IMG/VR virus record: IMGVR_UViG_3300045902_000324
Span: 1-64,000 of that record
From: a virus
Reading direction: 5' to 3' (one strand)
DNA: 64,000 nt
This document shows positions 8,983 to 52,934 of the stretch, piece by piece. The stretch's first letter is position 1. Each line of letters opens with the position of its first letter. The notes beneath the pieces were generated by a model. It saw nothing but the letters and a program-made list of their open reading frames with translations. It was not told the DNA's origin and did no database searches. The translations under genes were made by a program, and so were the position numbers.

Positions 8983-9252
8983 TCAATACTTGCGGAACAC
9001 GTCGAACTCGGAGCGCAGCCGCTCAACTTCGTCACCAGGCGCGTAGCCGATTTGCTCACCACCTACGACCACAAGTTTCTGCACGGTGCCAGCTTCATCC
9101 GTCATCGGGACGATGCTCTCCACCTGCAATTCCAGCGCCCACGCAGGCTGGTGGAAAAGGGTTACGGGCGTGTTTTCTTCGAGTTCACCACTTTCCACTT
9201 GGTCGCGGAGTTCATCTGCCAGGTCGAGGAGGTCGGATACGGTGAATTTCAT
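8983..9252 (-). CDS. Hypothetical acidic protein
   Basis: Start MKFTVSDL at 9252; class I promoter 9280-9308. Confidence 0.65.
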   Translation of the reverse strand: MKFTVSDLLDLADELRDQVESGELEENTPVTLFHQPAWALELQVESIVPMTDEAGTVQKLVVVGGEQIGYAPGDEVERLRSEFDVFRKY

Positions 9253-9442
9253 TTTTATATCGATTAGGTTGATTTCTATATCGCAAGCTATGTGCGTCTT
9301 ATAGTCCAGTAAGTTACGGCGGTTCACTGGATGCTTAAAGACAGACGCACCCGCCTATGGCTGGCTGGGCATTGTCTAAGCGGCACATAGCAGGTATGGC
9401 GATGGAAGCAACTGACAAGCTTGGAACTGTGGAGAGAAGCCA

Positions 9443-10231
9443 ATGACCCGTCGGCGGCTATCCGCTCGGTGGCTCGACAAGGCTGGGCGCAACCACTACA
9501 ACATCAACGATTTCTTCCGACCCCCAACGGTAGGCGATTTCGGCATCCCACAGATGGAGCCATGCGCTTACGTACCAAAGCAACTCTTTCCATTCGACGA
9601 AAAGCACAAATGGCGCGAGGGACTGGGCGACTGCATCAGTTTTTTCTGCGACGACTGCGAGTTCGAGAACGTGTGGCTCCGCGCTAACAGAGATCCACAC
9701 ATGCCTGCGGTCATTGAGAAAATCGGATGCACCCTCACGCCCGACTTTAGTCTGTATCGAGACTGGGAGACGGCGGTACTAATCTGGCAAACGTACCGAA
9801 CTCGGTTTATAGGCAGCCTGTGGCAGTCGCTCGGCATTAATACTATCCCTACCGTGTCCTGGGCGACCCCTGGCAGCTACCGATACTGCTTCGACGGACT
9901 CCCTGTGGGGGGCAGTTTTGCGATCGCCACAGTCGAGCTGAACGATGCGAGGAGTGCAGGTATCTTCGTAGACGGCTACCGAGAGTTCCTGCATCGGTGC
10001 CAGCCGGATACAGTGCTGATCTATGGGCAGGGATTCAAGGGGCTGCTTGAGTCAGATGCCGAGCGGGTGGGTGCGCGTGTGGTTCGGTATCGTACTCGAC
10101 TCCACGAACTTCGCGTCAAGCAAGACCTGGCAAAAGCGAAGGCGGAAGAGAATGCGGATCAGCTAGGAGACAACAGCCGAAGCGTGAGGGTCGGGAGCAT
10201 GTCACGCTTTTTGGCGCAAACACAGAGGTGA
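9443..10231 (+). CDS. DUF4417 family protein
   Basis: FGIP, FFCDDCEFENVW, TPDFSLYRD, IPTVSW, CFDGLP, LIYG motifs. Confidence 0.85.
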   Translation: MTRRRLSARWLDKAGRNHYNINDFFRPPTVGDFGIPQMEPCAYVPKQLFPFDEKHKWREGLGDCISFFCDDCEFENVWLRANRDPHMPAVIEKIGCTLTPDFSLYRDWETAVLIWQTYRTRFIGSLWQSLGINTIPTVSWATPGSYRYCFDGLPVGGSFAIATVELNDARSAGIFVDGYREFLHRCQPDTVLIYGQGFKGLLESDAERVGARVVRYRTRLHELRVKQDLAKAKAEENADQLGDNSRSVRVGSMSRFLAQTQR

Positions 10232-19901: not shown

Positions 19902-20110
19902 AGGTGAAAAGGTTTTTGGTTTATAACCGTATCGTAATCTTTGACACTTCGGGTTGTCAATTAATTGGCAATGAGTATTTTGGCTTACAACTGTGGGCAA
20001 CCTTCAGCGCCTACCGAGTACGCTGCGGATCTTACAGGGCAGGATTCGGGCCGATGTGGAACCCCATATTGGAGCCGGGTCAGCCCTGTTGGGGACGCTA
20101 GGGATAAGAT

Positions 20111-20161
20111 TCGGGACTTACGGGGTAAAAGCCAGGACTTACCTGGAACCAGCATCTACCC
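20111..20161 (+). repeat. 51-bp dispersed repeat, copy 1
   Basis: 47/51 identical to 24497-24547. Confidence 0.9.
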
Positions 20162-20477
20162 ACGAAGTCCCGGTTTTTGCCCGAAAAACGGTGCTCTGAT
20201 GCCTCAAAAAAATACGGGAGGCTTGAATGAACGGTGGAATGCGGCTTCCAGCGATCGTACATGCCTCCCTCAGCCCGCTATCGAGTATCGCAGCCTTTCG
20301 ACAGTTTTATACTTCTACGAACTCTAGTCCCACACCCAAGGGTTCGTGCCCCATCCTTGATCCACTCCCCGGTCTGAAGAGACGAGGCTACCAAGCTTCC
20401 CAACTATCCTGGTGTCGTAAATCGAAAAATCGTGGTTCATGCGTGGGTACGGGTAAAGTGTTCTGCAATCAAAAGCC

Positions 20478-22938: not shown

Positions 22939-23793
22939 TCAATCGGTACTGCGCCGTGCCTTCTTAACGAGATACATCCTTTTATCGGATTCATGTAGCG
23001 CTTCCTCGGCACTGGATGGCGGCACTTCAAAGGACACCCATCCAATCGAGTGTCCTACGGGCAGTTTCAGGTCAAACCCGGCAACCATTTCGTCCAGGTT
23101 GCGCTGGATTCTATCGATTGCCGCCTTCGCCTGCCGCTCAGTCGTGTTGCTGAGCAGTATTGCGAACGCATCACCTCCAATCCTCGCAACGGTGTCTGTA
23201 CGCCTCACGCACGCTACAGTCTGCCGCAGAAACTCGTCACCCATCGAATGTCCACAGTAGTCATTGATCAGCTTGAATCGATCAACGTCAATGTAGGCGA
23301 TCGTGAACGGCGACCCGTACATCATTGACTTATCTATCTCTGCATTCAACTGCTCCATAAAGTGCAGTCGGTTTAGCGCTCCCGTGAGCTGGTCAGTTCG
23401 AGCAAGTAATCTCTCTCTTTCATGCGCCTCCTTCAGGCTAGAAACCAGGCGCACTACGGAAAGCAAAATTATCAGTCTTGACACAACATTCCAGATAGGG
23501 ATGAGCGCACTGCCGTACTCTCGTGTCGTCAGATCGCATATTTTCCACAGGGTGAGAGACACAACTGTGGACACCACGCCGGACTTAAAACCTAGCCTAC
23601 TGGCAATTACAGCGATAGGGATGACGTAGAAAAATGCGATCACTATATTCTGATAGTCAACCGCGTAATCTACGGCGGCGATCGCCACAATAGTTATGTA
23701 TGCGGCGATCACAACTCTGCGTTTTGATTGCGTCTCCAACCAATAGATTGCGCGATCGCCATAGCCCGTGATGCTACATTGCGAGGTCTTCAC
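22939..23793 (-). CDS. Membrane-anchored GGDEF-domain protein with variant GGDAF A-site
   Basis: About 4 TM helices, TDQLTGALNR, IDVDRFKLINDYCGHSMGD, RRTD I-site, ARIGGDAF. Confidence 0.92.
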   Translation of the reverse strand: MKTSQCSITGYGDRAIYWLETQSKRRVVIAAYITIVAIAAVDYAVDYQNIVIAFFYVIPIAVIASRLGFKSGVVSTVVSLTLWKICDLTTREYGSALIPIWNVVSRLIILLSVVRLVSSLKEAHERERLLARTDQLTGALNRLHFMEQLNAEIDKSMMYGSPFTIAYIDVDRFKLINDYCGHSMGDEFLRQTVACVRRTDTVARIGGDAFAILLSNTTERQAKAAIDRIQRNLDEMVAGFDLKLPVGHSIGWVSFEVPPSSAEEALHESDKRMYLVKKARRSTD

Positions 23794-24369: not shown

Positions 24370-24496
24370 AAGCATAAATACTTAAAATGCTGGTTCCATT
24401 ATCTACCCACAAGGTTCCGATTCTTACCCTGCGGGAGCCGCCGTATACACTATCGGGTCTGGAACCCGCAGGGCAAAAACGAGTTCCAACCGAAAA

Positions 24497-24547
24497 TCGG
24501 GACTCACGGGGTAAAAGTCGGGACTTAGCTGGAACCAGCATCTACCC
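24497..24547 (+). repeat. 51-bp dispersed repeat, copy 2, inside a motif-rich non-coding tract (24385-24720)
   Basis: Matches 20111-20161; repeated ATCTACCC, GGTTCC/GGAACC and GGGAC. Confidence 0.9.
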
Positions 24548-24792
24548 TTTGAGTTCCACCATCTACCCAAAAGGTTCCGTTTCGGGACTTGCTGTGTAGA
24601 TCTGGGAGCCGCAGTCTACACACGAAGCCCCAATTTTTACCCAATTTTTGGCTGTTTTTGGGGTCAGATTTTCTGGCTGGGCGGGGGGAGACGATGGAAT
24701 GCGGGTTTCAGCCGTTTCACACGCCCTCCCAGGAGACACACACGAAAAAGCCGCCGTCCGATACCTGGACGGCGGCTGCGTGTGGTGCGTGC

Positions 24793-25590
24793 TTATCGCT
24801 TGAGACTCGCCAGCTTTACGGGCAGCGTCTCAAGCAAGTGTGCGATTAGCGCGTTGTTGCAGGGTACGGGGTGCCCGCGCCGCTCCGACTCTATCTCTGC
24901 AAGCCTGTGGATCATGTCCACGACACGAGGGTTCGTGATTCTGAATCGAGCCAGCGTCTTGGTGGAGGTGGTTTCGACCGTCTTCACGGCAGTCTGGTTG
25001 AACAAGTCCAGCAAATCGAGCGAATCTTGCAACTCAGGACTAGGTTCTGGCTCCAACTCGTCTTCCACAACCGGATCAGTCCACGCTTCTAGTGCTGGTT
25101 GACCATCTGTATACCCTTCCAGTGCTGCGATACGTTGCTCCAGACGTGCGATCGCCTCCACAACCTGTGGAAACTCCTGTTGCGGTTCGTGCCAGCCAAG
25201 CGCCTGCTGGATAAACACGCGGGCACCAACGGATGCGAACAGACGGAACCACCGCTGCGCCTGTTCTGTACGATAGCGTCCTGCGTCGAATGCATAGTAT
25301 TCCAAGATGAGCATGACTGCCTTATCAGGAATGCCAGATCCGCAAAATGCACCCCCCTCAAACCCATGCTCTGCAAGAGTTTTAGACAGGCTCGACTCAC
25401 TTAGCGCAACACCCTGAATATGCCGAAGAACGGATGAAGGTTCGACCCCTGCCAGCCGAGCAGCACCGCGAATTGATGCATACGCAACGCCGTCATCTGA
25501 AATACGGAACTCCGAACGATACTGGTCGAACATGTTTGCTACATTGGAATCAATCACTGTGTTTTTCCTTGTGAAACTGCAAGCCTCCAT
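24793..25590 (-). CDS. Antirepressor-like DNA-binding protein
   Basis: AYASIRGAARLAGV, ILEYYAFDAG, GARVFIQQALGW; class I promoter 25608-25636. Confidence 0.6.
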   Translation of the reverse strand: MEACSFTRKNTVIDSNVANMFDQYRSEFRISDDGVAYASIRGAARLAGVEPSSVLRHIQGVALSESSLSKTLAEHGFEGGAFCGSGIPDKAVMLILEYYAFDAGRYRTEQAQRWFRLFASVGARVFIQQALGWHEPQQEFPQVVEAIARLEQRIAALEGYTDGQPALEAWTDPVVEDELEPEPSPELQDSLDLLDLFNQTAVKTVETTSTKTLARFRITNPRVVDMIHRLAEIESERRGHPVPCNNALIAHLLETLPVKLASLKR

Positions 25591-37570: not shown

Positions 37571-40500
37571 ATGCCAATCCCTATTTTGGAACTTGACCCG
37601 GATTGGGAGATTCAAGAAGTCTCCACAATCGACCAGTACAAGTCTGAGCTAAATGACGGGTACAAGCAGACGGCAACCAAAAATCTACCGTCGAGCATTC
37701 TGTCATGGGAAGTCCGAAAGACGGGGCTGTCTCAGGCAAATCTAAATCTGCTACTTGGCCAGCTAGAGACATTCGCAGGTAGCACCCCGTTTTCGTGGCG
37801 TCCCACGGAAACCGTCTCCTATCGAGCCTACTTCTGCGACGAGTGGACGGTGATTTCATACGACACGGATTGCTGGCAAATATCCGGCAAGTTCGTTCAA
37901 GACGTTGGCGGCGAGTGTGTAGAGCTGCTTGATCTGATCGACACCGTGGAGATCACAAACTGGCTGGCGGCAAGCGATGTCTGGCTAACCACATACACCC
38001 GAAACACCCTCCCACTTATCATGAACTCTGTGGCAGGGAAACCCTATCTGCTGGTCAACTCTTTTCACGATGTGCTGGGTCGCGGCGGATACTTTCCCGG
38101 CAGCGCCGGGACGACCGAAGGGCAGTTCCTCATGATCCGAGCCTGTATGGATGTGTTCAACCAGACAGGCATTGCATCATGGCGGCAGCGGGCGATCGAC
38201 ATGGCTGTCGCGCTAGAACCATCTCTGTACCGAGGGCAGACCGTACCTGCCGATCCAAACACGCTTTGGCTCCCACACTGGGTGTTTAACGTCAAGGCTC
38301 CGTTCACATCAAAAGGACTAAACACAGCCCCCAACCCGCTCAACTATGGTTACTTCGATCTCCCTGTAACATTCACGGCAGGCGTAGGTCAGATCTCGGC
38401 TGGAGCACCTAACCAAGGCGACAAGCTATCTGATGTCTACAGCGTCTATGCGACCGGAGCAAAGCTGCTGTGGCAAAACGTATTCGCGCCAGTCGTGTTC
38501 GGCACCCAGTACCAAGTCGAATACTGGGTGGTCAACTTCATGCTGGGTGGACAAAACTTCAGGATCTACCCGTCCTCAGCTTCGAGCAACGGAGCACCAC
38601 CACTCGCTACGACTGAGCCTGCGGGACGGATCAAGCTGACCACAGCGTTTACCGGGAGTCTCAAAGTTACCTACGCTGCTTACACTGGGAGCGTTATCGT
38701 TGCGAATCAGGTCTTTGACCCGTATCCGTTCTGGCGCACGTTGTTGCCAGGTGAAATCAACTCTGCGTTTGACGTTCACTGGTGGGCTTACGATGCGTAC
38801 GTGAAGCTGGCGGCAACTACAGGTCTTCTCAAGTGGACGCAGGCGGCTGAGGCGACTCGTGTCAACACGATCAACACAGCAGTCGTCCAAAACCCAACAA
38901 ACTGGTACAAAACAGAGGACAACCCAAATCCATTCGGCTACCCCGGCTCTCAGGCTATTCAGGTAGACAACCCAAACGGCTACACCGCCAGCAGGGAGAC
39001 AGCGATCGCGGGGCTACTCAATACCCTAAAGCTGGTCGTTGCGGCGGCACCGGGCGGCACGTTTCCTAGCATCGAGGTTCAGAACTTCGCGGTTCAAGCG
39101 CAGATTAACGCGGCTGTAACGATCGAGGTGGCGATCGCGCAGACTACCACAGCGACGGTTCGCATTGCGCTGTCGCTATCGCCAAACGCATTTGACTTCA
39201 GCCAAACCTATTACGTTAACTGGCACGTCGAGGCGAACACAACGGCGCTTACATCAACATCGTTCATCCCAGAAAACTTCTTCCGCTGGGATAACAACCT
39301 GGTGTGGCATTTGTCGATTGCTGAAACGCCTATCTACGTGTTCTCTGGCGGCGGCGGCAGCGCAACAACAGGGACGTTCCAGGCTACGAACATCCCATAC
39401 CTGGGGAAAACACTCAAGCAGGCTGTGGGCGAAATTCAGATGAACGCAGCAGCAGGCTTTGCTGGTGCAGGGTTAGTGCTCATCGGCAGACAAGTTAGAC
39501 GCCCTCCACAACTCGCGTTCAGGACAGACAAGACCATCATCCTTCGGCTTACCGACGGCGAGGGGTACAAGTGGGACAAGGAGATCGCCAATACAGGCGG
39601 GTGGGTCTTTGTTCGGTATCCGTGGAGCGCCTTCGAGTTTTCACCTAATAACATCGGGGAGGAACCGCAGGCACCGGACACACAGAACGACATCCAAAAT
39701 ATCGAGTTCATTGCGGTCGCTGGAGAAGGGTTGACCACAGTGCGGATCTGGTGGGCATCCGAGGGAACCACCAACCCACCCGCCCAGCTTCCTATTCCGG
39801 CTCAAACATACAAAGCCGCCGTGGTGTCTAGAAACCGGAATGCTCATACTTTTTGGGTCGGAAACTTCCGCCCGGCAAACAGTCCGAGTGATCAACTAAA
39901 GTACAACCCCGGCGTCGTTCCTTTTACAGTAAACATCGTCAACGGGGTTGTGGATGCTTGGCGGGGACTGCCTTACATGGGCTATCAAGACCCAGAACTT
40001 TGGTTCAAATGGGGGCTTACGGATCGCTGCCAGCAAGTGCTTGACTGTCTCGATGCCGCTCAAGATGCATACGCGGCATCCACAGGGGTTGTAGGGGCGT
40101 TTGCTCCAGTTTTCAAATGGGGCTACTGGGACGGCGGCGACTACCTGGGCGGACTGAACACGTTTAGCTGGTCTGGGGCTGACCCGAATACAAGCTGGGG
40201 ACAATACTTCTATCGTCCGTTAGAAGCGACTGCCAAATACTGGAGCCAGAACCCAGGCGATCGCAAAGCAGATCAAATCGTCATGCGAGGGCTTGCGATG
40301 CTGGACGCGCACTACCTAAAAAACAATACCAGCGTACCGTTTACTGATTTCCCACAGGGTGCTCCGCCATTCGCTGGCTACAACGATCCTGCTGCGTCAG
40401 CTCTGATTGGCCGAGCAGCCGTCTATGCAAATCTAGCTGGCGGCAGTCCGTCTATCACGCTGCGTGTCATCAACCGGACAATAAAACACCTCCAGAGCCA

Positions 40501-40681
40501 GTATGTCTCAACAGGTATCATGGCGGGCACCTGGAGCGCCGGGCAGCCAACCTTCGTCAGTGGAGGAACAATCTATCGTGAATTCTTTGGGTTTTGGCTG
40601 GCCGAGATCTATCTATACTTAGCACTCTTGCTCGAAAAGAAGAACGCCCTAGTGATGCCCCCTTGTGGCACACGAATCTAG
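37571..40681 (+). CDS. gpM-like distal tail domain fused to a large glycanase/carbohydrate-binding-like region
   Basis: N-terminal DGYKQ...PFSWRP...CDEW...GKFVQ; then TTEGQ (GH8-like TSEGQ) and an aromatic-rich body. Confidence 0.65.
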   Translation: MPIPILELDPDWEIQEVSTIDQYKSELNDGYKQTATKNLPSSILSWEVRKTGLSQANLNLLLGQLETFAGSTPFSWRPTETVSYRAYFCDEWTVISYDTDCWQISGKFVQDVGGECVELLDLIDTVEITNWLAASDVWLTTYTRNTLPLIMNSVAGKPYLLVNSFHDVLGRGGYFPGSAGTTEGQFLMIRACMDVFNQTGIASWRQRAIDMAVALEPSLYRGQTVPADPNTLWLPHWVFNVKAPFTSKGLNTAPNPLNYGYFDLPVTFTAGVGQISAGAPNQGDKLSDVYSVYATGAKLLWQNVFAPVVFGTQYQVEYWVVNFMLGGQNFRIYPSSASSNGAPPLATTEPAGRIKLTTAFTGSLKVTYAAYTGSVIVANQVFDPYPFWRTLLPGEINSAFDVHWWAYDAYVKLAATTGLLKWTQAAEATRVNTINTAVVQNPTNWYKTEDNPNPFGYPGSQAIQVDNPNGYTASRETAIAGLLNTLKLVVAAAPGGTFPSIEVQNFAVQAQINAAVTIEVAIAQTTTATVRIALSLSPNAFDFSQTYYVNWHVEANTTALTSTSFIPENFFRWDNNLVWHLSIAETPIYVFSGGGGSATTGTFQATNIPYLGKTLKQAVGEIQMNAAAGFAGAGLVLIGRQVRRPPQLAFRTDKTIILRLTDGEGYKWDKEIANTGGWVFVRYPWSAFEFSPNNIGEEPQAPDTQNDIQNIEFIAVAGEGLTTVRIWWASEGTTNPPAQLPIPAQTYKAAVVSRNRNAHTFWVGNFRPANSPSDQLKYNPGVVPFTVNIVNGVVDAWRGLPYMGYQDPELWFKWGLTDRCQQVLDCLDAAQDAYAASTGVVGAFAPVFKWGYWDGGDYLGGLNTFSWSGADPNTSWGQYFYRPLEATAKYWSQNPGDRKADQIVMRGLAMLDAHYLKNNTSVPFTDFPQGAPPFAGYNDPAASALIGRAAVYANLAGGSPSITLRVINRTIKHLQSQYVSTGIMAGTWSAGQPTFVSGGTIYREFFGFWLAEIYLYLALLLEKKNALVMPPCGTRI

Positions 40682-41133
40682 CGAATCGGGCCGTTTCTAT
40701 CACACACATATCGCACAATAGGGATCACGACATCATCTCCTGCTGCGATAGAACTACCGGGCACTGTGTCTCTATCTGCGTTCAATCCGAAGAACGTGAA
40801 CTGTGCAACACAAACACCATTGCTGCCGTGGTGGTCATAGTCGAGATCTGCTCCAAACGGCATGTCGAGTCTGTCCACCCACACCGCCTCAAGTCCGGCT
40901 GGCGGCACGTTGCGATCTCGGTCGAGTGGGGGCTGACCCGTATCGGACTGGATCTCCAACACCAGCGGTACCATATTTCTTGCTATCGACTGCGCCTCGG
41001 CATACAGAGCTTTGTTGCGCTGGTTCAAGTACGAGGGCAGCGCGATCGCAGACAGCACGCCGACAATCGCAATTGTCACTAACAGTTCGATTAGCGTGAA
41101 TCCTGGTTGACCATAATCAGTTCGTTCGTCCAT
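40678..41133 (-). CDS. Type IV pilin-like protein
   Basis: Class III signal peptide G|FTLIELLVTIAIVGVLSAIALPSYL; two C-terminal Cys. Confidence 0.9.
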   Translation of the reverse strand: MDERTDYGQPGFTLIELLVTIAIVGVLSAIALPSYLNQRNKALYAEAQSIARNMVPLVLEIQSDTGQPPLDRDRNVPPAGLEAVWVDRLDMPFGADLDYDHHGSNGVCVAQFTFFGLNADRDTVPGSSIAAGDDVVIPIVRYVCDRNGPIR

Positions 41134-41181
41134 ATCAGAATAAATACTAGCGATCGGACTCCAAGAGGCGATCGCGGTTAA

Positions 41182-41844
41182 TTAGGTGAAGAACCGAATA
41201 CCAGCGAGAGTAACTTGCTGAGGGTTCGCAGGAGAGCCAAGGGCGTTAAAGTTTATGGCTCCGTCCGTGCCGCATCCAAGAACGACGTTAGCATTTGTGC
41301 CAAAATTCTCGACCGGATATCGCATCGTACTGGATGGCCTGAACCCAACTGGCAGCGTGCAGATTGCGCCAGCGGCAAAAGCTAGTGGTCTACTAGCATA
41401 GCCCCGCATCAGGACTTCTCCGCGAATTTTTGTATACTGACACGCCTGAAAGCCAGCAGCGTTAACCCAGCTATTCTGGAACGAAACCGCTGCCCAAACG
41501 GGTGCGCCATTGGTATCTGCAAGCTGCCAAAAGCCGCTGGCGTGAATAAACTCAGCCCACTGGGTTGATCCCAGTGCCAGAGTGCCGTTCAAACTGATGC
41601 CATTCGTGTCTTGGAACGCGATGACATTTGCGCCTGCATTGTGGACGCGAACTCGCTGTCCATTGCTGCCACTGGCAATCTGAGGGTTAGAGGTCAGCGT
41701 GATGTTCGCTGTCGAGGTGACAGGACACACCTGAAACGCCACGCCTGACGTGATGGCGATCGTGGTTCCGGCGACCAGCGCTTGACTGGAGTTGAGGATC
41801 GGAGTGGCAGTGTCGCCGACAGCAGCTCTAATTGCTCCAAGCAT
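41182..41844 (-). CDS. Tail fibre / receptor-binding-like protein
   Basis: C-terminal WVN...QYTKIRGEVLMRG...ICTLPVGFRPS head domain. Confidence 0.7.
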   Translation of the reverse strand: MLGAIRAAVGDTATPILNSSQALVAGTTIAITSGVAFQVCPVTSTANITLTSNPQIASGSNGQRVRVHNAGANVIAFQDTNGISLNGTLALGSTQWAEFIHASGFWQLADTNGAPVWAAVSFQNSWVNAAGFQACQYTKIRGEVLMRGYASRPLAFAAGAICTLPVGFRPSSTMRYPVENFGTNANVVLGCGTDGAINFNALGSPANPQQVTLAGIRFFT

Positions 41845-41947
41845 TAATCCTTCCTTTTGCCAATCGCAATAATTTCAGCAACGCGCTCGATGATTGGCGT
41901 TATTTTCTTGAGCGCTTTACCCAGCCGCTTAAACAGTTTCTTCAAGG

Positions 41948-42553
41948 CTACAGCCCTCCCCAATAGAATTGCAAGGTTGTATTGGACGCAGCAGACGCCC
42001 GAATCCTAATCGTCTGCACAAAGAAGTCCCTGAAGTCGAATGCCAGAATCACCTTACCCGTTGTCGCATTTAGGGTGGTCGGATCAACACTCGCGCCCAG
42101 CGTGTCACCAGACAGCCGCAAGATTGAGTCTGACGGGGGAGCAGTGAAATGAGCGCCAGTGTTCAGATGGATCTGCATATCTGCACTGGCATTGCAGCGA
42201 GTTGATATCTCAAAACCGTTCAGGTTGGCTGCACCAATGTTATTCACCTGAAGCCGAAAGCGGGTCAGGGTGGGGATTTCGATAAAAGTGCCAGTGGATG
42301 CAGTGAGGGCGGTGCCGCCGACGACAGCAAGGTTCGTCGGGTTGCCGAACGATGCGCCTACGGCTGCTCCTGTGTCCACCTTGAAACGATCGCCTACTAG
42401 AGCCGTGGGAAGTAATGCCTGAATAGCAGCGGCGATCGCCGTCAGCGCCGGATCTCTGCGAATCAAGTCATCCCCAGCCCCTCCGTTATCTTCCACCCGC
42501 ATGGTGCGCGGGGTGTTCGTCCCGTCAATGTAAGTGCGTCCTACAATTGTCAT
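41948..42553 (-). CDS. Hypothetical virion-associated protein
   Basis: Beta-rich; class II promoter 42577-42585. Confidence 0.55.
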   Translation of the reverse strand: MTIVGRTYIDGTNTPRTMRVEDNGGAGDDLIRRDPALTAIAAAIQALLPTALVGDRFKVDTGAAVGASFGNPTNLAVVGGTALTASTGTFIEIPTLTRFRLQVNNIGAANLNGFEISTRCNASADMQIHLNTGAHFTAPPSDSILRLSGDTLGASVDPTTLNATTGKVILAFDFRDFFVQTIRIRASAASNTTLQFYWGGL

Positions 42554-42555
42554 AG

Positions 42556-43350
42556 CTATCCGTTAGGGTCTACTTGACAATGCCCAATGTGCTCAGACAG
42601 TGGCGCAGGCATACCCACAGCGAAGCCCTGCAACAAAAGGTCGCACTGTGGGTATGGACGCACCATCTCGTTCAACTCAGATATCAACGAGTCTGATTCG
42701 ACCCACTCGGCAATACACAACAATCTAAGATCGTGACAAATGCTGAACAACCCTCGGATAACAGCCCGATGTTTTGAGCTGTCCAGAACTCTAATCACAA
42801 ACCCGCCGTTTATCTTTAGTCCGTCAATCTCTAGATTCACGATTGAGTCTAGATTTGAGTAACCTATCCCAATATCGTCAAGCAAAATGGGAGACAATAG
42901 CGCCATACGCATCACGCTATCCCCAATTACTCGATAGTCGAGAGGCTGAGACTCAAGTACTTCTAGAATCAAACACGGCTCGATTAAACCGGACAGTACA
43001 TCACCAACCCGGTCAGGTAAATCTTTATCGTGCAGTGATGCCGCCGTTAGATTAACTGTAATTCTAATGTGCAGGTATCCACACGCTCTGAGCATCCGTA
43101 AATCATCGACAACTTGCCGCAACACCCAGGCATCAAGTGCGATCGCCAGCGTGTCAATTTCAAGAACGTCTGGAACGAACTGAGCCGCTTCAATGACACT
43201 CCCATCAGACCGGGACATCCGAATCAGAGCCTCAAACATTTTTGCAGGCTGCCCCAGTTCTGACGGACGTTTTACTGGCTGATAGTAGACTCGCAAATCG
43301 CCACCGCCAGCCCGCAGTGCGTCCCACACTTTTTGTTGTATCTGGTTCAT
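42556..43350 (-). CDS. Stand-alone EAL-domain c-di-GMP phosphodiesterase
   Basis: YYQP, FEALIR, TVNL, ILEVLE, DDIGIGYS, LKI, IAEWVE, LQGF; ATG 43350 overlaps the J stop (TGATG). Confidence 0.92.
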   Translation of the reverse strand: MNQIQQKVWDALRAGGGDLRVYYQPVKRPSELGQPAKMFEALIRMSRSDGSVIEAAQFVPDVLEIDTLAIALDAWVLRQVVDDLRMLRACGYLHIRITVNLTAASLHDKDLPDRVGDVLSGLIEPCLILEVLESQPLDYRVIGDSVMRMALLSPILLDDIGIGYSNLDSIVNLEIDGLKINGGFVIRVLDSSKHRAVIRGLFSICHDLRLLCIAEWVESDSLISELNEMVRPYPQCDLLLQGFAVGMPAPLSEHIGHCQVDPNG

Positions 43351-46064
43351 CAAACGAAAACTAGATTCTGGGATCTGGACATATCCAAACCACCTGTGAT
43401 TGCTGCAATCACAGGCTGGCTGTTTACCCACAGCGAGGTGCGATTGTTAACATCAAGCACGGCGGCGCGACAGTAGTATGTTCCCCTGGTCAGATTCTCG
43501 AAACGACACTCATTGGTGCCTGCGGGCACTAGTCGAGTGTCCTGCCATACAATCCCATCGCGGGAATATTCAACATACACGCCGCGCAGGACGGACGCAC
43601 TGGCTCCAACAACCCATCGGATGATCAACGTGTACTGCGGAGAAACAGACGGGTCAATCGCCTGTACAGCGATCGCCTGCCCCAAAACAGATTGAAGTGG
43701 TTCTACAACAGGTGGAATCGTAAACCGAGTTGGGGTCGGATCAATGGCTATATCATTCTCAATGGCAAGCCATTTGTTCGCATCGTACTGGATGCAGTTG
43801 ATGTCGATTTTTGTCGGGTCTTGCTGCGGGCGGACTGAGAGCACTCTAAACAGTTGAGCTTTCACCGAAGGCGACTGAATTACCCAATTCGATTCAGCCT
43901 GTGGGAGCTGCGAGAACGGCGGCCACACCTGTACCACATTTGACGTGACATTAACGCCGATCGTCCGGGTTTCGAGCAATCCGTTTGGCAACATGACAGA
44001 AAGCGTCATGCTCGTATTTACGGTGACTGTCGCGTCTAATCGAATCGTGTTAGAGTTAATAACTTGTCCGATCAACCCGCCATAGCGAACGTTGGCAAAG
44101 TTTGAGTCTGCGACTTGAATCACTTCACCGGGTCGGCAGTATGCAGCGTAGCTTCGAGCGGTGAAACTTAGCGATCGCGTTTCATTCTTCGAGCTGTACA
44201 GAATCCATCTACTATTTCTAATCGCTAGAGATCTTGAGGTGCACCCAAAAAAAGCAACCTCAACATCGCGGACACCATAGCGGTTGATCGCCTCAATATC
44301 CTCGACTACTTCCACAGCCCGTTGGTAATAGTCATTCGGGTCATTCCAGACACCTCTAACAATCGTATGCCGAGTGCGGACAGCCGTTGAGGAATAAACG
44401 AAATCCCCTACCACATCAGCCTGTGTGAACTGATGATGACTCACCGGAGTTGGACGATCTTGCCAGAACTTTACGGTACCCTCCGCCCAGTATGCCCGCA
44501 TGTGGCACGCCGAGCAAAAGGCGTTGATTACATCCCACGCTTTTTCAGCGGAGGCGATTTGAGTGTTGCAGGAATATCGGCGCTCAGATCCGCCGAATCC
44601 CGTAGGTACATACCCATTGTTATAAACAGACGCATCATACAGATCCCACTTGTCGATTAAAGAGTCATCCAAGTATCGACCCAGCCCATAGCGCCGATTT
44701 GTCAAAATGTCGAACAGTTGCCAAACCGGGTCACTGGTGGCTGTTGCAGGTGTATAGAAATTGCCGTCCCACACGCCTGAGAAGTTCAGCCCGCGATCGC
44801 CTGCGACAATAGCATTCGTGGGAATCCGAACACGCCGTCCACCAACTCGATACTGACGAGACGGGATCGAGCTGAACTGGTCTGGGCTAAACTGAAGCCC
44901 GATATACGCTGTATACGGATAATTCAACTTATTGGTCGTGACCTCGGTATAGCTAATCCACCGAACCACCTGAATTGTGCGAGACGAGTTGGAATCACTT
45001 GAAATACGCCTCAGTCGGATCTGAAAATTGCCGACCGTACCAGACTGGTTGTTTACCTTGAAAGCGTGCTCAAACTCAGTCAGTCCACTAAACTTAGCTT
45101 TCAGATTTTTTCTGTAGCGAACTGTCCAGGGCGCGATGCCCTGCTTTATTTCGATCTGGTACTCTACGTTCGTCCCCTTTACATCTCCATCCTCCTCATA
45201 CTTCACGAGTTGGATGCCCAGGCGAACACGTATGACATCACACTCCGTGTTCACAAATGCGCGAGTCGCTGGGCCGGACGCATTCTTGATTTCAATATTT
45301 ACAAAAGTCTCATTGCTGATCTCAACTCCTTCGTCTGAGATAATCTGCTGCGTTGCGTTCCCGCGCCGGAACTTATACCGGAAGCCCACAAAGTTGAGTG
45401 AGTTATTTGGGTTCTGGACAGGCGTCTCAGATAGATAAATCCCTTTACGAGCACCAATCAGCCCTTCAATCGGGCCCTCTGAAACAGCCTCCAAGACGTA
45501 CGCTCTTGAGGTCGATCGCCCGTCGTCATCGGCCTCCTTTGGGCTGGACGCATTTTTTCCGCCGCCTCCGTTGTGAACACGCAGCCCATGTTCGCCAACC
45601 AGGAAGCTGTGGTAGTTCTCAACTCGCAGATTCCATACGGGTGCCACGCCACGCAGTCTAGATCGCTCCAGAGGTCTAACCAGGTTTTCTCTATCAAATA
45701 GCGCAGCGTCTCGGCCAAGCTTGCCTATCTCCTGAAACGCCCCGCCATCGGTCAGAAACCAGTGGATCGGAGTTGCTGCTATGGTGCCGCCCCAGTAATC
45801 GTACTCCCACACCTCGTGGTTTCCGTGGAACTCTAGCGTTGCTTTGGCTACATGCAAATCGCCTTTTGAGTCAAACGCTGATACCCATGTACCCTCCGCC
45901 ACATCCTGGATTTCTACAGTGCCATCTAGCGTGTGGATTAGCGTGCCGGACGGGAAACACCCCCCGCCTGATCCAAAAACAAGCCCGTCCACATGGCTTG
46001 ACGGGATGGATGCAACAGCCTTAGTGCGGCGACGCCTAACCTTCGTCATCGGAATCATCCTCAA
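43350..46064 (-). CDS. Lambda gpJ-like tail tip / central fibre protein with an N-terminal Hint domain
   Basis: VSEGPIEGL, LNYPYTA, WDGNF, DPVW, YGLG, PGEVIQVAD; probable start at M6 (46049). Confidence 0.93.
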   Translation of the reverse strand: MRMIPMTKVRRRRTKAVASIPSSHVDGLVFGSGGGCFPSGTLIHTLDGTVEIQDVAEGTWVSAFDSKGDLHVAKATLEFHGNHEVWEYDYWGGTIAATPIHWFLTDGGAFQEIGKLGRDAALFDRENLVRPLERSRLRGVAPVWNLRVENYHSFLVGEHGLRVHNGGGGKNASSPKEADDDGRSTSRAYVLEAVSEGPIEGLIGARKGIYLSETPVQNPNNSLNFVGFRYKFRRGNATQQIISDEGVEISNETFVNIEIKNASGPATRAFVNTECDVIRVRLGIQLVKYEEDGDVKGTNVEYQIEIKQGIAPWTVRYRKNLKAKFSGLTEFEHAFKVNNQSGTVGNFQIRLRRISSDSNSSRTIQVVRWISYTEVTTNKLNYPYTAYIGLQFSPDQFSSIPSRQYRVGGRRVRIPTNAIVAGDRGLNFSGVWDGNFYTPATATSDPVWQLFDILTNRRYGLGRYLDDSLIDKWDLYDASVYNNGYVPTGFGGSERRYSCNTQIASAEKAWDVINAFCSACHMRAYWAEGTVKFWQDRPTPVSHHQFTQADVVGDFVYSSTAVRTRHTIVRGVWNDPNDYYQRAVEVVEDIEAINRYGVRDVEVAFFGCTSRSLAIRNSRWILYSSKNETRSLSFTARSYAAYCRPGEVIQVADSNFANVRYGGLIGQVINSNTIRLDATVTVNTSMTLSVMLPNGLLETRTIGVNVTSNVVQVWPPFSQLPQAESNWVIQSPSVKAQLFRVLSVRPQQDPTKIDINCIQYDANKWLAIENDIAIDPTPTRFTIPPVVEPLQSVLGQAIAVQAIDPSVSPQYTLIIRWVVGASASVLRGVYVEYSRDGIVWQDTRLVPAGTNECRFENLTRGTYYCRAAVLDVNNRTSLWVNSQPVIAAITGGLDMSRSQNLVFV
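45570..45959 (-). other. Hint (intein/BIL-type) domain, 130 aa, no endonuclease
   Basis: CFPSGT (Cys1), ATPIH block B, VWNLRV block F, terminal VHN, followed by Gly. Confidence 0.9.
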
Positions 46065-46629
46065 TCATGTACGACCGGATCGAGGCACTGAGCACCTGAC
46101 TACCAACGAGCAGTTCTCCATACACGACTGGCAGACGACCCCCTTGAGTCGTCGTATTGACCCCGCCATTAAAAATTAACGATGGTTTGTTTTTTGCATC
46201 ATTCGGGTCAGGTGCTTTGGGCTGGTTAAACAGTTCCATGATGCCGGACAGTGCCAGACTACCCCCGATCAGTGCGACGGATGCCGCCGACAACCCCAGG
46301 AAGCCCACGCCAGTCGCACCCAAAACAACCAGACCGATTCCAAGCAAAATTTTGCCGAATGCCCCACCTCCACCCAATGGCGTTGGCGCTATCGTAATTG
46401 TCTGTTTTCCAGTCGGCATCGAGACGTGCTGTTGCTCAATAGCCCAATCCCCGACAGTAATCTGGAAACCTACCCCACGCTCATGCGCGACGACCATGTA
46501 GTTGCGAAATGTCGGGAACGCTGACTCAAGGGCCCTGATCGCTTCTTTCACCGATCCAACGTTTAATCGGATCTCAGAAATGAACCGATCTGCCAACTCA
46601 TCTTTCAACACAACAGTCACCATCGGCAT
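46036..46629 (-). CDS. Lambda gpI-like (ubiquitin-like) tail assembly protein
   Basis: SVKEAIRAL...IAPTPLGGGG, TM segment, FNGGVNTTTQG.LPVVYGE. Confidence 0.9.
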   Translation of the reverse strand: MPMVTVVLKDELADRFISEIRLNVGSVKEAIRALESAFPTFRNYMVVAHERGVGFQITVGDWAIEQQHVSMPTGKQTITIAPTPLGGGGAFGKILLGIGLVVLGATGVGFLGLSAASVALIGGSLALSGIMELFNQPKAPDPNDAKNKPSLIFNGGVNTTTQGGRLPVVYGELLVGSQVLSASIRSYMIEDDSDDEG

Positions 46630-47429
46630 TACAAAAACGCCTCATGTCGAAAGGTAAACCGTGCAACCTCCTGCCAGTGCCCGCCGTACACTCTGGTTTC
46701 TGACAGGCGATCGCCGTTCAGCAAGTGCAGCAGCACCGGACGATCACCGACTTCCACAATCACGCCGCAGTGGTGCGGAATCTCTGACTCGATAGCCATG
46801 ATCGGTACGTCATACAGCCGCAACGGTTCAGTCGGATCGATTTCCACAAATCCGATCTGCGGCATATACTCTGTGAACGTGGCCCAGGCACCGCCACGTA
46901 GCTGGATAGCTGGCTCCGGTGCCCTATCAAAATCAGGCAGTTCAATATTTAAGAATCCACGGTAGAAATTCCGCAACAGCGTGTAGCAGTCCGCCCTCGC
47001 CCACACCCAGCGCCAGCCCAGGTAGAACTCTAAATCTGTTGGCTGCCCAATTCGGGGTTGCAGAGGAAACGGATTTAGCCCAGCAGGATCGTAAAAATCC
47101 CAAACCCTGTCCAACCTGTGGAACATGGCAATCGGATTCATCAACGCTCGTCCAGTGTTGATGTCCATGTAAGACAATTCAGCAGGCTGCGTTTCAAGCA
47201 CATGGCTGTGGTAAACCGATTGAACAGACATGCCGTTGTCAGACAATGCATCGTACGCCTTTCGGTCAAACGCAAAATAGTTGGCTGTGTCGCCAGCAAC
47301 GTTTTGGAGCGGCGCGACCGTAAGCATTCCAGACGGGTCAACGCAGACAGCACCACAGATTTCCTCATCTGGGTTTTCGTCAGCGAGTGCTTCAATCTGC
47401 AATCGGATTTCGGATGAGTAGGGCAACAT
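46629..47429 (-). CDS. Lambda gpK-like JAB + NlpC/P60 tail assembly protein
   Basis: EEICG, YHSH...LSYMD; DCYTL...HCG...LLH; probable start 47429. Confidence 0.9.
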   Translation of the reverse strand: MLPYSSEIRLQIEALADENPDEEICGAVCVDPSGMLTVAPLQNVAGDTANYFAFDRKAYDALSDNGMSVQSVYHSHVLETQPAELSYMDINTGRALMNPIAMFHRLDRVWDFYDPAGLNPFPLQPRIGQPTDLEFYLGWRWVWARADCYTLLRNFYRGFLNIELPDFDRAPEPAIQLRGGAWATFTEYMPQIGFVEIDPTEPLRLYDVPIMAIESEIPHHCGVIVEVGDRPVLLHLLNGDRLSETRVYGGHWQEVARFTFRHEAFL

Positions 47430-47469
47430 CTGTGATGGGCGAAACACCCTAGACATTACCCAGCGGGCG

Positions 47470-48135
47470 CTAAAAACGTCTCAGTCCTGGGAAGCCGCCG
47501 AAAGGCAAAACTGAGTTTTTACCGAATCGTCTGGTGCAGGCTGTCACAGACTTTGAACAGTCATCCAGCGACGGGTCTAAGGTTCGCTTATTGTCCAAAG
47601 TGAAATACGTGGTGCCGACATAACTGCACTCAGCGGAGCGATACACCCACGGGCACTTTGTACCGCATGGTCGTCCCGGCACGGACTCGTCTACAAAGTC
47701 AATTGGTGCAGACAGCTCAAACTCCAGCATCTTTCCAGGGATCTCCTGAATACGCTGGCTGATTACATACAGTCCGTCCAGCCTCAATGCTGCGGGATCT
47801 GCGGTTGTCTCTGAGTCGAGATATCGTTTCAGCGTCCGATAGACAGCTAGTCTGGCACCCTCAAGCCCGTCATAGTAATAGACCAGGTTGGAAATACCTT
47901 TCGTCGTGTCATCCACACGCAGCTTTGGTCTGGCTAACGACCCTTCAGATGACATCTCTTCACCGGACAGTTCGCAATTTACTGGCGTGTATTGGACGCC
48001 GCCCATAACCACACCAACGCCAGCCGTAAAGTACGCCGTTTCTGCCAAGTTACGACGGTTGAAGTTTGTCATGCGAAACAGCGTCAGTACGGCATCATGT
48101 TCAAGCTGCTGAAGCGATGGGAAAAAAACTGTCAT
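47470..48135 (-). CDS. Lambda gpL-like minor tail protein
   Basis: CPWVYRSAECSYVG, DDCSKSVTACTRRF, PFGGFPG. Confidence 0.93.
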   Translation of the reverse strand: MTVFFPSLQQLEHDAVLTLFRMTNFNRRNLAETAYFTAGVGVVMGGVQYTPVNCELSGEEMSSEGSLARPKLRVDDTTKGISNLVYYYDGLEGARLAVYRTLKRYLDSETTADPAALRLDGLYVISQRIQEIPGKMLEFELSAPIDFVDESVPGRPCGTKCPWVYRSAECSYVGTTYFTLDNKRTLDPSLDDCSKSVTACTRRFGKNSVLPFGGFPGLRRF

Positions 48136-48449
48136 GGTGCGGGGGACCTTTCAAATTCTGCGGAGAACCCCCACAGCCCGACGGTTCCGTACCACTGCCA
48201 GCGCCATTGCGTGCAGGTATATTGAGCGTTCTGAAAAACAAACCGTCTTCCGTCACGCTCGATTAGGAACGCCTGCACTTCCGTATATCGCGTCGTGTTG
48301 ATTTGCACGAACCAGGTACGATCCGTCCGGTTCACGTCATACAAAACCGGGCGCTGCTGGATTCCCTGAACTCGCGCCGATGGCGATCGCACTTTGGTGC
48401 GATAGCTGGACTCTCGTGCTATCGATATTGGGAATGTCGGGGGTGGCAT
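48132..48449 (-). CDS. Second gpM-like minor tail protein
   Basis: AFLIERDGRRFVF...YTCTQW...AEFE; ATGA overlap with L. Confidence 0.7.
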   Translation of the reverse strand: MPPPTFPISIARESSYRTKVRSPSARVQGIQQRPVLYDVNRTDRTWFVQINTTRYTEVQAFLIERDGRRFVFQNAQYTCTQWRWQWYGTVGLWGFSAEFERSPAP

Positions 48450-48455
48450 TGCGTC

Positions 48456-48480
48456 GGGTATGGTCTTTTGAACCATACCC
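48456..48480. promoter_or_regulatory. Palindromic pair of class II (late) promoter elements
   Basis: GGGTATGGT-cttttga-ACCATACCC in the 39-bp gap between the divergent gpM2 and endolysin genes. Confidence 0.7.
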
Positions 48481-48488
48481 ACACACAC

Positions 48489-49220
48489 ATGGAACCCTTC
48501 AACCTTCAGTCGGCAAAGCCATTAGCGTTTCTCTCACCGGAACAAATCACATGGGTTCAGCACCAACTAAAGCGAGGTGCATACCTGGAAAAAGTGGACG
48601 GCATCGTGGGGCCTGCCACACTGAACGCTCTAAAGTCGTTCAAATCTGATTTCTACCTTGAGCATCCAGAGTTGATCGGCAACACAACTCTCAAGGCTCT
48701 GTCTGAACTCGACCCACCGGATAAAGTCACTGAGCAAGCAACCGAGATTATTCTGACGGTGAACGCAGCCGCCGGATCTAGAACAGGTCGATCCGCCACA
48801 CTGCCGGGAGCTGGGCTGGTCTACGCAAACCAGTGGATCAGACCCGGCATCCCACTTACGTGGGGCGAAATGACTAAAGATATGACACGTCTCCCAACCG
48901 ACAAAACAGTAGTCGCCAACATTGTCAACTTTGCCGCCGCATTTGGACAGATTCGAGCCAAGTTTGGTTCTCCTATTGCAATCACGTCTGGGTATCGCCC
49001 AAAGGCAGTAAACGATGCGATCGGCGGAGCATCCAAATCTCAGCACGTACCTGGCAAGGCTGCGGACATCCGCCCAGCTAACGGCGAATTCGACAAGCTC
49101 TTAGCAGTTCTCAAATCAATTGATGCGGTCGGAGGCATTGGGCTAGGCGAGAAAGCTGGCGGGTTTCTCCACGCAGATACCAGGGAGAAGCGAGTCATTT
49201 TTCCATACGGTAGCCGCTGA
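48489..49220 (+). CDS. Endolysin: peptidoglycan-binding domain + M15A peptidase
   Basis: VDGIVGPATLNALKSF; TSGYR...SQH...AADI...FLHAD; start 48489. Confidence 0.9.
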   Translation: MEPFNLQSAKPLAFLSPEQITWVQHQLKRGAYLEKVDGIVGPATLNALKSFKSDFYLEHPELIGNTTLKALSELDPPDKVTEQATEIILTVNAAAGSRTGRSATLPGAGLVYANQWIRPGIPLTWGEMTKDMTRLPTDKTVVANIVNFAAAFGQIRAKFGSPIAITSGYRPKAVNDAIGGASKSQHVPGKAADIRPANGEFDKLLAVLKSIDAVGGIGLGEKAGGFLHADTREKRVIFPYGSR

Positions 49221-51680: not shown

Positions 51681-52934
51681 ATGATGACACGCAGAGTTAC
51701 CTTTAGGCTGTATCCATCTGAAGCGCAAACGGCAAAGCTGTTTGAGGCTCGGAGGCTTCACGCCTATCTCTATAACGCTTGCGTTGAGCATCGTAAAACG
51801 AGCTATCAGAAGTTTGGCAAGTCCATCAGCTATTTTGATCAGCAAGCCGCGCTTGTACCGTTTAAGGCTGATTGGCAGGAGTATAGAGCGCTCAATCATG
51901 GCTCATTGCAAGCCACAGTGAAGCGGGTTGATTTTGCCTTCCAGCGCTTTTTCAAAGGACTGGGTGGGTATCCCAAGTTTCAAGCGATTCGCCGTTACTC
52001 TGGCTGGACATACCCTGATGCCCGTCAAGGCTTTAAGGTGCATTCAGACGGCAAGAATGGATACTTGGAATTGCGGGATCTAGGGCTAAAGCTCCAGATG
52101 CGAGGGCAAGCGCGAACTTGGGGCGCTCCCACGACTTGCACAATTGTCTATCGTAACGGGCTATGGTTTGCCAGCATCACGGTAAATTGCGAGGTTGCGC
52201 GCAAAACCGGCAATGGCGCGGTAGGAATCGATTTTGGCGTACTGACGGCTGCGGCATTGTCAAATGGAACCAAGATCGAAAACCCGCGCTTCATTGCCAA
52301 AACGCAAGCCAAGGTTCGCAAAGCAAGCAAGGCAAAGCGTCGCAAGCGCTCACCCAATCTCAAGCAAAAAGTTAAAGCGTCAAAACGATGGAGGAAAGCG
52401 TCTAAGCGGGTATCAAAGCTGCAACGCAAAGTTGCAAATCAGCGGCAGAACTGGGTACATCAAGTCTCTACACAGATAGTCAGCAGTAATAGCTTGGTAG
52501 CGACTGAAAAGTTAAACCTCAAAGGGATGACTCGCAAGGCGAGGAAAGGAAAACGCAAGGCGCAAAAGTCAGGGCTAAACCGCTCCATTCTGGATGTTGG
52601 GATGGGGATGTTGCGCGCTGCGATTGCGTATAAGTTGGCGGAAGCAGGGGGTTTCTTTGTGGAGGTGCCGACGCTCACGGTTAAGCCTTCTCAGACTTGC
52701 CCCAGTTGTGGTCATCAGGAGAAAAAACCACTTGAGCAGCGAGTGCATCATTGCCAGCAATGCGGTTATGTGGAGGATAGAGATGTGGCGGCTGCTCAAG
52801 TCATGCTCAATTGGGCACGGGGTAAGGAACTTGCCTCGTCAAACGTGGATGGGTCTGGCTCTACTGACTGCGGAAGCATGAAGCAACTAGCCCAAACGAA
52901 GCGTCAGAAACTCCTAGCTCAGCGAAGCGGCTAG
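51681..52934 (+). CDS. tnpB: TnpB RNA-guided endonuclease
   Basis: FRLYP, GIDFG, TEKL, CPSCG...CQQCG, DRDVAAA. Confidence 0.95.
   Translation: MMTRRVTFRLYPSEAQTAKLFEARRLHAYLYNACVEHRKTSYQKFGKSISYFDQQAALVPFKADWQEYRALNHGSLQATVKRVDFAFQRFFKGLGGYPKFQAIRRYSGWTYPDARQGFKVHSDGKNGYLELRDLGLKLQMRGQARTWGAPTTCTIVYRNGLWFASITVNCEVARKTGNGAVGIDFGVLTAAALSNGTKIENPRFIAKTQAKVRKASKAKRRKRSPNLKQKVKASKRWRKASKRVSKLQRKVANQRQNWVHQVSTQIVSSNSLVATEKLNLKGMTRKARKGKRKAQKSGLNRSILDVGMGMLRAAIAYKLAEAGGFFVEVPTLTVKPSQTCPSCGHQEKKPLEQRVHHCQQCGYVEDRDVAAAQVMLNWARGKELASSNVDGSGSTDCGSMKQLAQTKRQKLLAQRSG

Follow-up and report, generated by a model that had tools for sequence, protein, structure and literature searches.

The virus record IMGVR_UViG_3300045902_000324 encodes a stand-alone EAL domain protein, a putative phosphodiesterase (PDE) for cyclic di-GMP (c-di-GMP), inside a tail-tip operon that ends in a type IV pilin gene. 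The record is a single linear sequence of 97,462 bp; its first 64 kb are the stretch analysed here, called the window. The operon forms a contiguous unit on the minus strand in the order orf118-L-K-I-J-EAL-orf201-(pep33)-orf220-pilin. Lengths are in amino acids (aa) or nucleotides (nt), and ORF stands for open reading frame.

42556-43350, minus strand: stand-alone EAL domain protein, putative c-di-GMP phosphodiesterase, 264 aa (PF00563, residues, structure model)
43350-46064, minus strand: tail-tip protein J, 904 aa (FNIII-A_GpJ 1.2e-23, Phage-tail_3 2.4e-16, weak Hint/PT-HINT)
46036-48488, minus strand: orf118, gpL, gpK-like and gpI, the upstream operon genes (Phage_tail_L 1.1e-36, Lambda_tail_I 3.2e-6, weak Prok-JAB, ORF map)
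41948-42553, minus strand: orf201, starting 2 nt past the EAL stop (no Pfam or PHROG match)
41844-41945, minus strand: pep33, candidate ORF for a 33-aa cationic peptide (read from the sequence; TAATG overlap with orf220)
41182-41844, minus strand: orf220, tail-fibre or minor-tail C-terminal-like (phrog_3285 'minor tail protein', E 8.7e-7, residues 46-208)
40678-41133, minus strand: type IVa prepilin-like protein, 151 aa, last operon gene, 48 nt past orf220 (N_methyl 2.6e-8, phrog_3433, TIGR02532)

The lambda-type tail-tip module is complete and in order, with gpL, gpK (weak JAB), gpI and gpJ. The junction of J and the EAL gene reads GTT-TGA-TG-AAC, so that the J stop and the EAL ATG have one base in common. 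The EAL homologues have their N-termini at the position that corresponds to the ATG at 43350, which is therefore the likely start in preference to an in-frame GTG upstream. A consensus scan for promoters and terminators between 40.6 and 43.4 kb found none beyond chance. With no promoter or terminator of its own, an overlap with J and a 2-nt gap downstream, the EAL gene is not an autonomous insert of the moron type. Its status as a genuine phage gene within a tightly packed tail-tip operon is supported. Both the TGATG overlap with the J stop and the operon end in a type IV pilin had been described in the original prediction, and the junction sequence and the pilin matches confirm them.

The EAL protein and its virus-restricted clade

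The EAL gene is intact. Its product matches PF00563 (EAL) with an E value of 1.4e-36 and 126.5 bits, against a cut-off of 31.3, and has no extra domain, with 264 aa for a domain of 236 positions. The active enzyme MorA (PDB 4rni) served as the reference for the residue alignment. Q24, E40-A-L-x-R44, N100, E130-x-x-E133, D158-D159, K179, E215 and Q241-G242 are kept; the gene had been predicted as a stand-alone EAL gene with its catalytic positions retained, and the domain match and this alignment agree. Departures from the textbook are KIN for KID, EWVE for EGVE, and a loop 6 that reads DDIGIGYSN (canonical DDFGTGYSS). The canonical loop 6, DFG[TA]GYSS, is associated with EAL activity and dimerisation. 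An AlphaFold2 (AF2) model based on a 12-sequence alignment has the triosephosphate isomerase (TIM) barrel of EAL domains, with a predicted local distance difference test (pLDDT) value of 86.5 and a predicted template modelling score (pTM) of 0.85. The top Foldseek matches of the model are all EAL domains with template modelling (TM) scores of 0.76-0.81, including BifA, MucR and MorA at ~0.8. Judged by residues and model, the protein looks catalytically competent.

A word-indexed protein search missed the closest relatives of the EAL protein and returned a best match of 31% identity. Clade members came to light via an exhaustive HMMER search and the pilin alignment. Among 1.84 billion cluster representatives, the HMMER search found three close clusters, P0144, P0145 and P0146, of 243-264 aa and 39-41% identity to the EAL protein (E 1e-36 to 1e-45; next score 1e-27). 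Scanning Joint Genome Institute (JGI) metagenomes with the clade alignment revealed 17 loci (36-40% identity), all on HIP1-rich contigs with 48-65 sites per 16-21 kb, and IMG/VR contributed one further record. With the same alignment, none of 185,579 reference prokaryote genomes yielded a member; the top match there had 31% identity, and no match was cyanobacterial. The clade was found only on HIP1-rich viral or metagenomic contigs. An EAL match of 29% identity in the AS-1 cyanophage fragment DQ115821, an unannotated 1.7-kb clone, was not interpretable and was set aside.

The palindrome HIP1 (GCGATCGC) is a marker of cyanobacteria. The record has 93 copies where 1.8 are expected, evenly distributed and some of them within the EAL and pilin genes. 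This enrichment makes a cyanobacterial host very probable. The cyanobacterial setting of the original prediction is borne out by the HIP1 enrichment of both the record and the clade contigs.

In a maximum-likelihood tree, the clade is monophyletic with 100/100 support against other stand-alone EALs and comprises five deep lineages. Sixteen clade sequences of ~36-40% identity all keep the catalytic residues Q, E, R, N, E, E, D, D, K, E and Q and vary at the Asn-181, Trp-216 and loop-6 positions. Loop 6 of the clade follows DDVG(E/T/M)(E/G)(F/W)SN, compared with DDIGIGYSN in the window; DD, the first G and S are constant and the rest is variable. Purifying selection on catalysis would produce such a pattern of invariance.

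Pilin genes beside the EAL genes

The pilin encoded at the end of the operon matches phrog_3433 'pilin' (5e-11) and TIGR02532 (3e-9) in addition to N_methyl. Its prepilin leader, MDERTDYGQPG/FTLIELLVTIAIVGVLSAIALP, has the cleavage site G/FTLIE (the slash marks the cleavage position) with a glutamate at position +5, as in class III signal peptides. Among 5.8 billion clustered proteins, the only full-length relatives are P0053 (57% identity) and P0054 (47%); all other matches cover the N-terminal helix only. The cysteine pair C108 and C144 is invariant in the three full-length pilin relatives. All three full-length clusters of the pilin family (window, P0053 and P0054) are linked to an EAL gene of the clade.

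Gene contexts cover four of the five deep EAL lineages; that of P0146 is not among them. In the 74.8-kb record IMGVR_UViG_3300032431_000004 (L089), the order is M15 endolysin, DUF3307, orf180, pilin and EAL, and the EAL ATG comes immediately past the pilin stop. L184, L181 and L182 are near-copies of this arrangement, and the gap between pilin and EAL is 0-45 nt across L089/L184, L181 and L182. The L089 contig also has two podophage-type Gp80 fibre genes. The order is reversed in L173, with EAL before pilin and ~45-80 nt between them. In the window, the EAL gene is followed by three short ORFs and then the pilin gene. A pilin homologue is adjacent to, or at most 1.5 kb from, the EAL gene in three of the five deep lineages, in three arrangements and in genomes that otherwise share almost nothing. 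With three gene orders in three deep lineages, the EAL-pilin link is, by gene context, conserved. That the two genes stay close together although their order is rearranged is the best argument for a shared function. The connection of EAL and pilin had been claimed from the window; other viral and metagenomic contigs, where homologues of the two genes are neighbours in differing orders, bear it out. An ancestral EAL-pilin pair with one loss would be the simplest history.

In the P0145 lineage, the EAL gene comes after a GIY-YIG-like ORF, amid DNA methylases and a phage-type DHH phosphoesterase. Within 7624-10711 of contig L176, the EAL start overlaps the GIY-YIG-like ORF, and a DHH/DHHA1 phosphoesterase gene (phrog_4771, 4e-67) lies 1.5 kb off. 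DHH enzymes are able to degrade pGpG, the EAL product, so that the two L176 enzymes together might take the degradation to completion. Near the pilin-EAL pair in L089 is a gene for a DUF3307 membrane protein (9144-9479). A 144-aa ORF adjoining the pair in L173 (2221-2655, minus strand) is DUF3307-like by sequence appearance, without a blast match. The phage of the window has a DUF3307 homologue at 66464-66853 of the record, ~23 kb away.

The GGDEF gene, promoter motifs and the virus record

The original prediction combined the EAL and pilin genes with a GGDEF gene into a trio, with the GGDEF gene under the same late promoter motif as the tail-tip operon.

22939-23793, minus strand: membrane-anchored GGDEF-domain protein (Pfam GGDEF 1.3e-33, weak DUF4118, membrane region)

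The GGDEF domain behind a membrane region is real. The ORF has 284 aa, or 257 aa as the database calls it. Its signature is GGDAF and not GG(D/E)EF; the cyclase site is not intact. The RxxD inhibitory site (I-site) is intact five residues upstream (RRTD-TVARI-GGDAF), and its R170 and D173 do not vary within the family alignment. The family consists of small membrane-anchored GGDEF proteins of 34-40% identity, mostly with GGDEF; two of ten relatives have GGDAF. Mutagenesis of PleD and WspR showed that the second acidic residue of GG(D/E)EF is required for cyclase activity. Because the active site is degenerate, the GGDAF protein is more likely to bind c-di-GMP than to make it.

The gene belongs to a separate leftward island that interrupts the rightward head module and also contains a BstA-like gene and a terminator. 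The BstA abortive-infection homologue (24793-25590, minus strand; phrog_6287 1.3e-7), which has a strong hairpin terminator behind it, may point to a carrier or temperate lifestyle. Upstream regions of the GGDEF gene and the tail-tip genes revealed no common late promoter motif; HIP1 is the sole element shared there. The 9-mer AGTATTTAT occurs before the pilin gene and ~590 nt upstream of the GGDEF start, with a chance probability estimated at a few per cent, and could be due to chance. A sigma-70-like promoter family, TTGAC-N17-21-TACGATA, has 14 strict and 20 relaxed copies genome-wide, all leftward and none rightward. Sites include window positions 7848, 13253, 16398, 20772, 60299 and 63281, and several drive small leftward genes between rightward structural genes. 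This family has no copy in 40-49 kb and none upstream of the GGDEF gene.

The trio is not supported. Its GGDEF member has a degenerate site, sits in a separate island, shares no demonstrable promoter with the tail operon and is absent from the 74.8-kb record that has the EAL-pilin pair (a record that is 78% complete). The proposed co-occurrence across relatives applies to the EAL-pilin pair, which recurs, and not to the GGDEF gene. What is conserved in cyanophage-like genomes is a pair of EAL and pilin; the finding is neither a trio nor a virion enzyme. Delivery of the PDE from the virion, suggested originally, found no support for this bare EAL barrel.

Repeats of the forms GGAAC(C/T)-N4-5-GGGTAGAT and CTTTTACCCCGT(A/G)AGTCCCGA are clustered at 24380-24640, a non-coding stretch between the BstA-like gene and the orf94-GGDEF pair. 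A second copy is located at ~20100-20170, and the repeats are local only. Operators, group-3 sigma −10-like boxes and a small RNA are candidates for their function.

The record is an uncultivated IMG/VR virus with a phage gene complement:

Head and packaging: T4-type large terminase (TerL), portal protein, Mu-F-like protein
Tail: 1,955-aa tape-measure protein; gpM-like protein fused to a large tail domain; lambda-type L-K-I-J tail-tip set
Lysis: M15 endolysin
Replication and other: family A DNA polymerase, DUF3987 primase/helicase-type protein, RuvC, RadC, TnpB

The tape-measure and gpM-fusion genes on the plus strand converge on the minus-strand block L-K-I-J-EAL-pilin in the region 37571-48500, and the two sides overlap by 4 nt (40678-40681). 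At its other end, the block has its first start codon ~12-40 nt from the divergent endolysin ATG (48489), which leaves no intergenic space for promoters. An invertible tail-tip segment was considered and rejected, as the boundaries have no inverted repeats. The gpM fusion (37571-40681, plus strand, 1,036 aa) has a gpM-like N-terminus (Phage_min_tail, 2.6e-6) and a large tail domain (phrog_2871, 3e-136); its phage relatives are annotated as glycosidase-like. The Gly-rich N-terminus of J has a Hint/intein-like insert at 45570-45959 (minus strand; Hint/PT-HINT weak, E ~5e-3). This segment starts with ...GGGCFPSGT... and ends with ...VHN followed by GGGG, hence without a +1 Cys, Ser or Thr. The ESM Atlas look-alikes of orf201 are viral hypotheticals, XepA and F5/8-type-C-like folds at TM 0.4-0.5, which are leads only; orf201 is possibly a beta-sandwich protein of the carbohydrate-binding or receptor-binding type. 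A TnpB/IS605 OrfB-type gene (51681-52934, plus strand; OrfB_IS605 2e-17, Cas12f1-like TNB) is located within the replication module. Beyond the window, a sigma factor gene is located at 87326-87961 of the record (minus strand); its best models are SigF and SigB/F/G group-3, below family cut-offs. SigF drives pilA1 and motility genes in Synechocystis. From these model matches, a connection of the phage sigma factor with the phage pilin is conceivable.

The record has no DNA match in the cultured-phage collection and no named relative, since matches to cultured phages are limited to distant TerL and tail proteins. Single-protein pattern scans of IMG/VR with EAL, gpL, TerL and capsid protein gave no match, and a scan with J gave distant relatives only (33% identity), without EAL. 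The Rfam scan of the window detected no c-di-GMP riboswitch and no other family. The window has no tRNA, and the genome has no PilZ domain.

Possible role in infection and alternative explanations

Whether bacteria live as motile or sessile cells is set mainly by c-di-GMP, which in cyanobacteria controls phototaxis driven by pili, flocculation and the uptake of DNA. The known ways in which phages interfere with c-di-GMP are indirect, by small peptides that bind a host cyclase or by host-like sensor genes on prophages. As a protein, the window EAL resembles PdeH (YhjH) of Escherichia coli and other stand-alone EALs (MorA, MucR, BifA and PA3825 are solved): a single TIM barrel of ~250 aa without a sensor domain, with the full metal-binding and catalytic set and TM scores of ~0.8 to MorA, MucR, BifA and PA3825. 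Unlike cellular EALs, it is only 25-31% identical to them, belongs to its own clade with loop 6 and EGVE variants, and is encoded in a phage tail operon.

GGDEF and EAL genes of temperate phages share with it a c-di-GMP turnover gene on a phage genome, downstream of J and fibres. Citrobacter phage Chris1 has a 519-aa gene annotated PAS-GGDEF-EAL that adjoins the integrase, and a recurrent enterobacterial prophage layout places J, fibres and a 519-aa EAL protein near the prophage end. In E. coli, dgcX is located beside lambdoid prophages (PMC4287979). These genes are classic morons, encoding large multidomain host-like sensors with their own intergenic regions at the prophage end beside the integrase. 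In contrast, the EAL described here is a bare catalytic domain that is translationally coupled to J, has fibre-like genes after it and has a pilin partner. Virome studies have listed diguanylate cyclase and yhjH-type phosphodiesterase genes of viruses (PMC7785012, PMC11295528). These genes also come from uncultivated viruses, and the enzymes were proposed to alter biofilm or aggregation. However, they were reported as survey-level annotation, without a conserved partner, a clade analysis, a cyanobacterial link or an EAL-pilin pair. Phage blockers of type IV pili, the PilB/PilZ-directed inhibitors (PMC11656802) and PlzR (PMC11461919), have a similar proposed outcome, a change in the type IV pili of the host; such pili often serve as phage receptors. 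They are small proteins binding the pilus motor or a cofactor, whereas second-messenger depletion and a phage pilin are proposed here; the analogy is functional only.

Two peptide patterns alone retrieved 158 EAL stretches from IMG/VR, and nearly all of the best 80 of these 158 are host-like multidomain proteins of at least 400 aa, many at contig ends. In the jumbo-size record IMGVR_UViG_3300033143_001962 (250 kb, L052), the gene for a 319-aa PAS-GGDEF protein lies immediately behind that for a stand-alone 248-aa EAL, and a second EAL protein, of 669 aa, is encoded elsewhere; it is a further virus with a c-di-GMP make-and-break pair of its own. A search of open-access papers found no description of a phage EAL in a lytic cycle, of a cyanophage EAL or of an EAL-pilin pair. 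The novelty claimed originally is too high, as phage c-di-GMP genes were known from viromes, Chris1 and dgcX.

Fairly probable is a stand-alone cytoplasmic EAL phosphodiesterase that is expressed late, together with a phage prepilin, and remodels or shuts down pili and aggregation in the infected cell. The EAL would be transcribed and translated with the late genes, by the stop/start overlap with J in the window and behind lysis genes and the pilin in the other virus. A late cytoplasmic enzyme is the most economical reading, because EAL and pilin are located in late operons (tail-tip and lysis) without signals of their own. Late in infection, the EAL may hydrolyse host c-di-GMP to pGpG. The type IVa prepilin may be processed by the host prepilin peptidase and enter the host type IV pilus machinery. 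Since the pair is located side by side in other viruses, both proteins probably act together on host pili, and the joint effect would be a remodelling or shut-down of the pili and the aggregation state of the infected cell. A pilus receptor may be removed or masked, and progeny and rival phages would no longer adsorb to the doomed cell. Alternatively, cells may be freed from flocs and mats, allowing progeny to spread. Cyanobacterial c-di-GMP and its receptor CdgR control pilus-dependent motility, competence, flocculation and minor pilin choice (bioRxiv 10.64898/2026.03.27.713163; 10.1101/2020.12.15.422378), and for this reason a remodelling of pili and aggregation is the most likely effect. 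A review also addresses cyanobacterial c-di-GMP and type IV pilus functions (PMC10124867), and pili are reported to raise phage encounter in marine cyanobacteria (bioRxiv 10.1101/2025.09.20.677514).

Sequence, model and gene context show an intact gene and fold, the conserved catalytic residues, the operon packing, the clade restriction and the recurrent EAL-pilin adjacency; enzymatic activity, late timing, pilin processing and the outcome for the host are predictions. Several points weigh against this reading. Loop 6, the asparagine after the lysine (KIN, variable in the clade) and the exchange of glycine for tryptophan in EGVE could confer an activity or specificity that differs from textbook enzymes. 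A pilin is absent within 10 kb of the EAL gene in the P0145 lineage (L174 and L176 among L174-L183), so the EAL can work alone. Lowered c-di-GMP could change piliation of the host in either direction. The record stems from a metagenome assembly, is ~84% complete according to CheckV and represents no isolated phage.

The last point also bears on a misassembly that joined host DNA to a phage. EAL matches in viral collections are mostly multidomain and host-like and lie near contig ends. The window EAL is located mid-contig, with phage tail genes on both sides at overlapping or 2-nt junctions; its clade recurs on other viral contigs and was not found in the reference genomes, and a misassembly is very improbable. 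Rather unlikely, with more in its favour, are carrier-state conversion genes: a plasmid-like prophage would express EAL and pilin continuously as morons and alter motility or aggregation, or exclude pilus-dependent phages. A ParB-N gene in the window and the BstA-like homologue fit such a lifestyle, temperate enterobacterial phages have GGDEF/EAL genes just past J and fibres (Chris1; L026, L056, L068 and L075), and the 48-nt gap upstream of the pilin could hold a promoter. However, the 1-nt overlap with J leaves the EAL gene without promoter space, and it has no terminator. The 14-20 leftward TTGAC-N18-TACGATA promoters include none in 40-49 kb. No tyrosine integrase (PF00589) was found in the genome, other recombinase families not having been searched for, and the pair comes after the endolysin in the other virus.

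The unusual loop 6 is common ground for two further explanations. Together with the EGVE variants of the clade, it could shift specificity towards the cyclic-dinucleotide alarm of an immunity resembling the cyclic-oligonucleotide-based anti-phage signalling system (CBASS), so that the EAL would act as an anti-defence nuclease and spare housekeeping c-di-GMP. Degradation or sequestration of immune cyclic nucleotides by phages is known (PMC10680739). All substrate-binding residues typical of c-di-GMP-specific EALs are kept, the gene is located in late tail or lysis operons and not among early genes, and the conserved partner is a pilin with no obvious role in immunity evasion, which makes this improbable. 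Loop 6 variation would also suit a protein that is not chiefly an enzyme: an adaptor that binds c-di-GMP, like FimX or a trigger phosphodiesterase, and docks on proteins of the pilus or of tail assembly, or a passenger that travels in the virion and enters the cell along with the DNA. FimX-like EALs regulate type IV pili by binding and not by hydrolysis, FimX structures are among the fold matches, and the EAL gene is located between J and fibre-like genes. Yet FimX-type receptors have lost catalytic residues that are invariant across this divergent clade, the protein has no docking domain, and the gene is remote from tail genes in other viruses. An adaptor or passenger has, like the anti-defence nuclease, little probability.

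A more specific form of the late cytoplasmic enzyme is possible but tentative: a two-gene cyanophage cassette of a minimal PDE and a dedicated decoy or capping pilin, which would strip or disable host type IV pili at the end of infection for receptor removal, superinfection exclusion or dispersal. If true, the cassette would be the first lytic-cycle phage enzyme aimed at c-di-GMP signalling. A virus-restricted minimal PDE with a recurrent virus-specific pilin is a concrete two-gene system that can be cloned in model cyanobacteria. The EAL protein is a potential compact tool to lower c-di-GMP in cyanobacteria. The pair could explain how cyanophages of mat- and floc-forming hosts deal with pilus receptors, aggregation and release.

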